This document shows, in pieces, positions 6,944 through 7,348 of a stretch of DNA of 7,348 bases. The notes under the pieces were generated by a model. That model saw only the letters and a program-made list of their open reading frames with translations. It did not search any database and was not told the DNA's origin. Source of the stretch: a virus (taxonomy: Monodnaviria > Loebvirae > Hofneiviricota > Faserviricetes > Tubulavirales > Inoviridae); IMG/VR virus record IMGVR_UViG_2537562221_000013; one strand, 5' to 3'. The translations under genes were made by a program, and so were the position numbers. Position 1 is the first letter of the stretch; each line of letters begins with the position of its first letter.

Positions 6944-6991
6944 TTCTATTCTCCCTACATAGTCAGAGAATAATTTATTGGGCGTCTCAAT

Positions 6992-7014
6992 GGTGATGCT
7001 GCCAACTTACTGAT
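6992..7014 (+). repeat. IS1 left terminal inverted repeat (IRL)
   Basis: 23-bp match to the IS1 IRL. Confidence 0.9.
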
Positions 7015-7046
7015 TTAGTGTATGATGGTGTTTTTGAGGTGCTCCA

Positions 7047-7322
7047 GTGGCTTCTGTTTCTATCAGCTGTCCCTCCTGTTCAGCTACTGACGGGGTGGTG
7101 CGTAACGGCAAAAGCACTGCCGGACATCAGCGCTATCTCTGCTCTCACTGCCGTAAAACATGGCAACTGCAGTTCACTTACACTGCTTCTCAACCCGGTA
7201 CGCACCAGAAAATCATTGATATGGCCATGAATGGCGTTGGATGCCGGGCAACAGCCCGCATTATGGGCGTTGGCCTCAACACGATTTTACGTCACTTAAA
7301 AAACTCAGGCCGCAGTCGGTAA
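7047..7322 (+). CDS. insA: IS1 InsA (transposition inhibitor and N-terminal part of the InsAB' transposase), 91 aa
   Basis: The translation [91 protein letters not shown] matches IS1 InsA along its whole length. Confidence 0.95.
7298..7304 (+). other. IS1 programmed -1 ribosomal frameshift site (A6C) that produces the InsAB' fusion
   Basis: AAAAAAC heptamer in the LKN codons near the insA 3' end. The -1 frame downstream reads [15 protein letters not shown], as expected for InsB. Confidence 0.85.
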
Positions 7323-7348
7323 CCTCGCGCATACAGCCGGGCAGTGAC
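7304..7348 (+). CDS. insB: IS1 insB frame, 5' portion only (cut by the window edge); expressed as InsAB' transposase
   Basis: The -1 frame relative to insA translates to [15 protein letters not shown], matching the InsAB' junction region. Confidence 0.75.

Follow-up and report, generated by a model that had tools for sequence, protein, structure and literature searches.

The filamentous prophage in the 7,348-nt stretch of DNA analysed here (the window) was very probably grounded by a simple insertion of IS1, which split the initiator gene of this dif-integrated prophage of the CUS-1/YpfPhi type. The insertion, the target-site duplication, the split gene and the intact reading frames downstream of it are established.

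Insertion of IS1 into a gene II/X-family initiator gene

The features at the phage/IS1 junction are as follows, in window coordinates except for the last.

6992..7348, plus strand: left part of IS1, 357 bp, identical to the matching part of the complete IS1 in the sister assembly
6992-7014: left inverted repeat of IS1, GGTGATGCTGCCAACTTACTGAT
7047-7322, plus strand: insA ORF, 91 aa, intact
6983..6991, minus strand: one copy of the target duplication, ATTGAGACG, gene II codons 231-233 (Ile-Glu-Thr)
6629..6991, minus strand: 3' remnant of the gene II/X-family initiator gene, codons 231-350 and stop, matching beneath the UTI89 II/X CDS
Far junction 40-mer, beyond the end of the window, joining the gene II 5' part and the IS1 right end: ATAGCTGGAATATTGAGACGGGTAATGACTCTAACTTATT

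The initial annotation had placed the left end of IS1 at 6992, directly against phage DNA, and this placement is borne out on both sides of the junction: position 6992 is the first base of IS1, where the left inverted repeat starts, and position 6991 is the exact end of similarity to intact prophages (nucleotides 1-692 of a query spanning 6300-7348 were aligned). The end of the window falls within IS1, with only its left 357 bp present. The called IS1 genes matched Pfam Zn_ribbon_InsA, HTH_Tnp_IS1 and DDE_Tnp_IS1 (PF03811, PF12759 and PF03400). An exact-protein look-up found the product of the 104-aa ORF next to IS1 as a separate gene on 21 contigs, among them APXU01000208.1 (assembly GCA_000357385.2), which is the window in reversed orientation. 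Since the window's own contig stops within IS1, the far side of the element is known from a sister assembly, in which another of the 21 contigs, the 608-kb AQET01000021.1 (L002), is 100% identical to the window across all 7348 bases (L002 16943-9596) and runs on past IS1.

The complete IS1 occupies 9185-9952 of L002 and is 768 bp long; its termini, GGTGATGCTGCCAACTTACTGAT and GGTAATGACTCTAACTTATTGAT, form imperfect inverted repeats that match at 17 of 23 positions. Alignment of L002 to the intact UTI89 prophage (locus L001) gave two blocks, 7345-9184 and 9953-16415, with the 768 bp of IS1 between them. The two blocks share 9 bp in UTI89 (L001 8684-8692), where ATTGAGACG occurs once, while in L002 the same 9 bp lie on both sides of the element (9176-9184 and 9953-9961). 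The target duplication of 8-9 bp that had been proposed as a check on the insertion is thus present, at 9 bp.

The second check proposed was a search for the upstream part of the same reading frame past IS1, and in L002 a gene with a 233-codon Phage_CRI domain lies there. Removal in silico of IS1 and one copy of the duplication restored a 350-aa frame of the gene II/X family, which differs from the UTI89 protein WP_000568110.1 (annotated as "phage/plasmid replication protein, II/X family") at two residues, N25D and P262T. The earlier proposal that IS1 had landed in a gII-like gene is confirmed by this restored II/X initiator. The 350-aa protein is matched by Pfam Phage_CRI (PF05144) along residues 1-231 (E 8e-74; 248 bits against a cut-off of 21.7) and by G2P_X_C (PF05155) along residues 253-336 (118-121 bits, cut-off 25), and the NCBIfam profile TIGR01629 rep_II_X spans it from end to end (E 3e-77; 260 bits, cut-off 29). 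Both initiator domains score above their curated cut-offs, which places the protein in the gene II/X family by sequence. The insertion point falls behind codon 233 of the 350, in the stretch that links Phage_CRI to G2P_X_C, and spares positions 1-231 of the 232 in the Phage_CRI profile. The upstream fragment that results is 259 aa long, made up of 233 native residues and 26 read from IS1. When the Protein Data Bank was searched by sequence for a gene II homologue of solved structure, only a chance match came back (E 0.54), and for this reason the catalytic residues were not placed.

The 40-base phage/IS1 junction was identical in all seven draft contigs fetched. One of these, GCA_049980085.1, belongs to a much later accession series, suggesting that it comes from a different project; presence of the junction in seven draft contigs, one of them of this later series, indicates a real junction rather than an artefact of assembly. 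Searches of 5,426 complete E. coli genomes with 1,049-bp and 134-bp queries found no instance of the junction, and the window's IS1 allele is restricted to a small group of draft genomes. The split gene also shows why the draft contig stops where it does.

The 104-aa ORF as the gene X counterpart

The ORF that remains on the window's side of IS1, and its ribosome-binding site, are located as follows.

6629..6943, minus strand: 104-aa in-frame internal cistron, putative gene X counterpart, Met247-His350 of gene II; G2P_X_C, E 4e-35
6951..6955, minus strand: Shine-Dalgarno-like GGGAG, 7-nt spacer to the ATG of the 104-aa ORF

The ORF begins with an ATG at 6943-6941, and its start and its own ribosome-binding site, both reported in the initial annotation, were found as described. 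The frame was likewise said to run open through 48 bp of phage DNA into IS1, and does so: upstream of the ATG the phage DNA contributes 16 sense codons (6991-6944) and IS1 a further 5 (7006-6992) before a TAA at 7009-7007, and the translation of 7348-6629 in this frame reads ...NQ*VGSITIETPNKLFSDYVGRIEMNQ... A stop-free run of 16 codons has a probability of (61/64)^16, or about 0.46, and since such a run is likely to arise by chance the open frame on its own is weak evidence for a split gene. This high chance expectation (~46%), together with the ORF's own ribosome-binding site, would suit a reading in which the 104-aa ORF is a free-standing gene, its upstream open frame a coincidence and IS1 an intergenic insertion. 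The likelihood of that reading is nevertheless practically nil, because 104 complete E. coli genomes carry the same DNA as the 3' third of a continuous 1,053-bp gene, the restored gene encodes 350 aa with just 2 substitutions, and the N-terminal Phage_CRI part lies directly past IS1. A free-standing 104-aa gene is refuted by the intact relatives, which carry an uninterrupted 350-aa gene of the II/X family at the same position, and by the restored gene; confirmation of the split gene came from the comparison with the sister assembly and these relatives.

Within the split initiator gene, the 104-aa ORF appears by sequence to be the counterpart of gene X, as had been suggested from its in-frame position. 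Phage I2-2 is the nearest sequenced free phage, with a gene II that is 58% identical, and Met247 aligns with the annotated start of its gene X, at codon 247 of its gene II, within the shared motif GRIEM. The I2-2 gene X start is also preceded by GGGG at a similar distance. The 104-aa ORF corresponds to positions 299-406 of the 407 in the TIGR01629 profile, and position 299 corresponds to codon 300 of the 410-aa pII of Ff phages, where their gene X begins. The ribosome-binding site of the ORF is accordingly native and did not arise through the IS1 insertion.

Identity and chromosomal location of the prophage

Positions 529-6991 of the window (6,463 bp) are 99.8% identical to the prophage of UTI89, an O18:K1:H7 strain, with 15 substitutions and no indels. 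The phage end on the secretin side is marked by the following site.

529-556, minus strand: dif, exact 28-bp E. coli site, GGTGCGCATAATGTATATTATGTTAAAT; limit of similarity to UTI89 and secretin-side end of the prophage

CUS-1, of E. coli O18:K1:H7, and YpfPhi, of Yersinia pestis, are Xer-dependent, dif-integrated phages that share 99% nucleotide identity across 7.1 kb, and after integration of YpfPhi the prophage carries a re-formed, intact dif at its 3' end (PMC4266046). The gene puvA is the marker of prophage CUS-1 (PMC4266046), and a remnant in strain 510016 of the 570-aa gene found in the window is annotated as "virulence factor PuvA domain protein". By these sequence features the prophage is identified as a filamentous prophage of the CUS-1/YpfPhi type at the chromosomal dif, next to hipBA. 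L002 has one copy of it, not in tandem, with hipA on one side and dif on the other. At the hipA-side end of the UTI89 prophage there is a degenerate repeat resembling dif, in which the XerC arm is preserved (L001 11817-11844); a search of L002 allowing up to 8 mismatches found no repeat of this kind.

The two prophages differ in their cargo on the attL side. L002 carries a 91-aa ORF of the ECs_2282 family, putatively zinc-binding, and an ORF of ~159 aa, as do strains 510016 and CUPF09, whereas UTI89 carries an unrelated 369-aa ORF (L001 10524-11748 against L002 6562-7344). Variability of the attL-side end between CUS-1 and YpfPhi has already been published, and the difference in cargo agrees with it.

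Outside dif, positions ~337 to 528 of the window are the chromosomal flank, and positions 1 to ~320 are an internal piece of an IS2 transposase gene, the frame of which exits IS2 near 320. JM83 and other strains have IS2 at the same place, between ydeT and dif; relative to JM83, ~264 bp are absent from the window's left flank. A reading of the truncated IS2 as a second lesion in the prophage was rejected, since the element is in chromosomal DNA beyond dif and strains such as JM83 also have an IS2 there. In strain 510016 the left flank is 100% identical to that of the window. On the other side of the prophage, a second IS1 lies directly behind the hipA stop codon (L002 5614-6382). It has its own 9-bp duplication and lies 2.8 kb from the gene II copy, in inverted orientation; the two copies differ at 1 base in 357.

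The same prophage in other genomes

A search of 5,426 complete E. coli genomes found gene II of the CUS-1/YpfPhi type in 115, of which 104 have it at full length. The genomes that bear it have a median of 2 matching places and up to 5 in this search, suggesting tandem or multiple copies of the prophage, as described for YpfPhi.

Among the genomes with partial copies, three strains have deleted forms of the gene. In strain 510016 (L010 17001-18181), IS1 bridges nt 246 of gene II and the 3' end of the PuvA gene, the deletion reaching gene III; in strain CUPF09 (L012 4001-5712), IS1 bridges nt 534 of gene II and the 3' end of the secretin gene, the deletion reaching gene IV; and in strain 8178 (L011 4001-6408) a deletion starts from gene II nt 820 with no IS present. 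In 510016 and CUPF09 the IS1 copies lie in the same gene II and at the same chromosomal site as in the window's prophage, but point the other way from its IS1. Their different positions and opposite orientation indicate at least three separate IS1 events in gene II. Alone among the three IS1 alleles, that of the window involves no loss of phage DNA; it is the cleanest, and presumably the earliest, stage of decay among them.

These IS1-linked deletions of the same prophage bear on whether the insertion in the window is in fact simple. An adjacent deletion mediated by IS1, or an inversion between inverted copies, could have removed or relocated the 5' part of gene II in the window's genome, and such a rearrangement might be suspected where the window stops inside IS1 with the far side beyond it and where L002 carries a second, inverted copy 2.8 kb off. 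This reading is extremely unlikely. Each of the two IS1 copies in L002 retains its own matching 9-bp duplication (ATTGAGACG and GTAAGTGAG), the gene order of L002 is colinear with that of UTI89, and the window is identical to L002 throughout. An inversion or deletion between the two inverted copies was rejected on account of these separate duplications and the colinearity with UTI89, and a simple insertion is the preferred account of the junction.

Phage genes downstream of the insertion

The long ORFs from 6943 to 1428 are all on the minus strand, in an order typical of filamentous phages. Those downstream of the gene X counterpart include the following.

6300..6617, minus strand: gene V-like ssDNA-binding protein, 105 aa; Putative_G5P, E 1e-52; identical to UTI89
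6046-6297, minus strand: 83-aa ORF
5778-6011, minus strand: 77-aa coat-like ORF
4001-5713, minus strand: PuvA protein, 570 aa, in the gene III position
3701-3988, minus strand: DUF2523 protein, 95 aa, in the gene VI position; Pfam DUF2523
2672-3697, minus strand: Zot/gene I-like protein, 341 aa; Pfam Zot
1428-2672, minus strand: secretin/gene IV-like protein, 414 aa; Pfam Secretin

All eight ORFs downstream of gene X are free of stops, have the same lengths as in UTI89 and differ from it by 0-5 substitutions each. The PuvA ORF holds 5 of the 9 amino-acid differences from UTI89 across these eight ORFs; in UTI89 it is annotated from a later start (1,563 bp, 520 aa), and the longer frame is open in both. 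The 570-aa PuvA ORF had no Pfam match on record and no NCBIfam match.

The initial annotation had described the export machinery as apparently intact. For the reading frames this holds; for expression it may not, as IS1 now stands between the genes and the gene II promoter and their expression is perhaps reduced. Consensus and relaxed scans for an outward IS1 promoter or a hybrid promoter serving the 104-aa ORF found none between IS1 and the ORF that was convincing, the best candidate matching at 8 of 12 positions (TTGGCA-17-CCCAAT), and no terminator-like site was seen. In Yersinia, RovA acts at the promoter region of YPO2274 and controls the transcripts of YPO2274 to YPO2279 (PMC4266046). 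Lower expression of the genes downstream of IS1 is plausible from the sequence, given the interposed element and the lack of a convincing replacement promoter.

Consequences for phage replication

The proposed course of events begins with entry of a complete 768-bp IS1 into the gene for a predicted rolling-circle initiator of the gene II/X family, which produced the 9-bp target duplication without loss of phage DNA and left a 259-aa N-terminal piece and a natural gene X-type cistron with its own ribosome-binding site. Lacking a full-length initiator, the single-copy prophage would be unable to nick its origin. With no nicking, neither replicative form nor progeny single strands would be made and the prophage would be grounded, its ssDNA-binding, coat, PuvA, Zot and secretin frames intact, yet with IS1 standing between them and the gene II promoter. 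A defect in replication is likely because disruption of YPO2274, the replication gene of YpfPhi, abolished the production of YpfPhi particles (reviewed in PMC4266046). In view of this result, and of the single, non-tandem copy in L002, the prophage most likely forms no replicative form or progeny strands, and is most likely unable to replicate or to yield particles. The source genome may hold an intact second copy of gene II elsewhere, which would undercut the defect.

The position of the cut within the initiator invites the question of whether its two halves could still work together. IS1 lies in the interdomain linker and does not touch positions 1-231 of 232 of Phage_CRI or any of G2P_X_C, which has a start codon of its own, and an N-terminal fragment and a gene X product that complement each other would amount to a functional split initiator. 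Such complementation is very unlikely. The N-terminal fragment carries a foreign tail of 26 residues, the gene X ORF is left without its upstream promoter and with no good substitute in sight, and in the Ff phages pX inhibits pII-dependent initiation and does not substitute for pII (PMC11962056). The YPO2274 result also speaks against it. More generally, retention of activity by the N-terminal domain or by the gene X product, whether as a split function or as inhibition of the pX type, is unlikely.

Because the cut leaves a complete gene for the N-terminal domain and a complete gene X, the remnant might still be more than dead DNA. An orphan pX could shield the host from superinfecting phages of the CUS-1/YpfPhi type, with the genes from PuvA to secretin kept for fitness, or the arrangement could be a naturally split initiator; either would be a speculative reading of the analysis, and it has only a small chance of being correct. 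With loss of replication as the preferred reading, the prophage of this strain group is very probably non-producing, which matters when prophages of the CUS-1/YpfPhi type are scored as active or as linked to virulence.

Comparison with known systems

IS1, the gene II/X arrangement, the CUS-1/YpfPhi prophage, integration at dif and IS-driven decay of prophages are all already known, and the present case is one of ordinary prophage decay that implies no new biology. The copy of IS1 in gene II shows nothing out of the ordinary for its family, with which it shares its length of 768 bp, the insA and insB frames, imperfect repeats of ~23 bp and a 9-bp target duplication. With gene II/X of the Ff phages (f1, M13 and fd) and of I2-2 the window's prophage shares a two-domain initiator, an internal in-frame start and a purine-rich ribosome-binding site; it differs from them in that the predicted internal cistron is physically separated from the rest of gene II. 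The order of genes is that of the CUS-1/YpfPhi-type prophage of UTI89, from gene II to the secretin gene and two small ORFs before dif. Gene II is intact in UTI89, whereas that of the window carries IS1, and L002 has, in addition, the second IS1 between the prophage and hipA.
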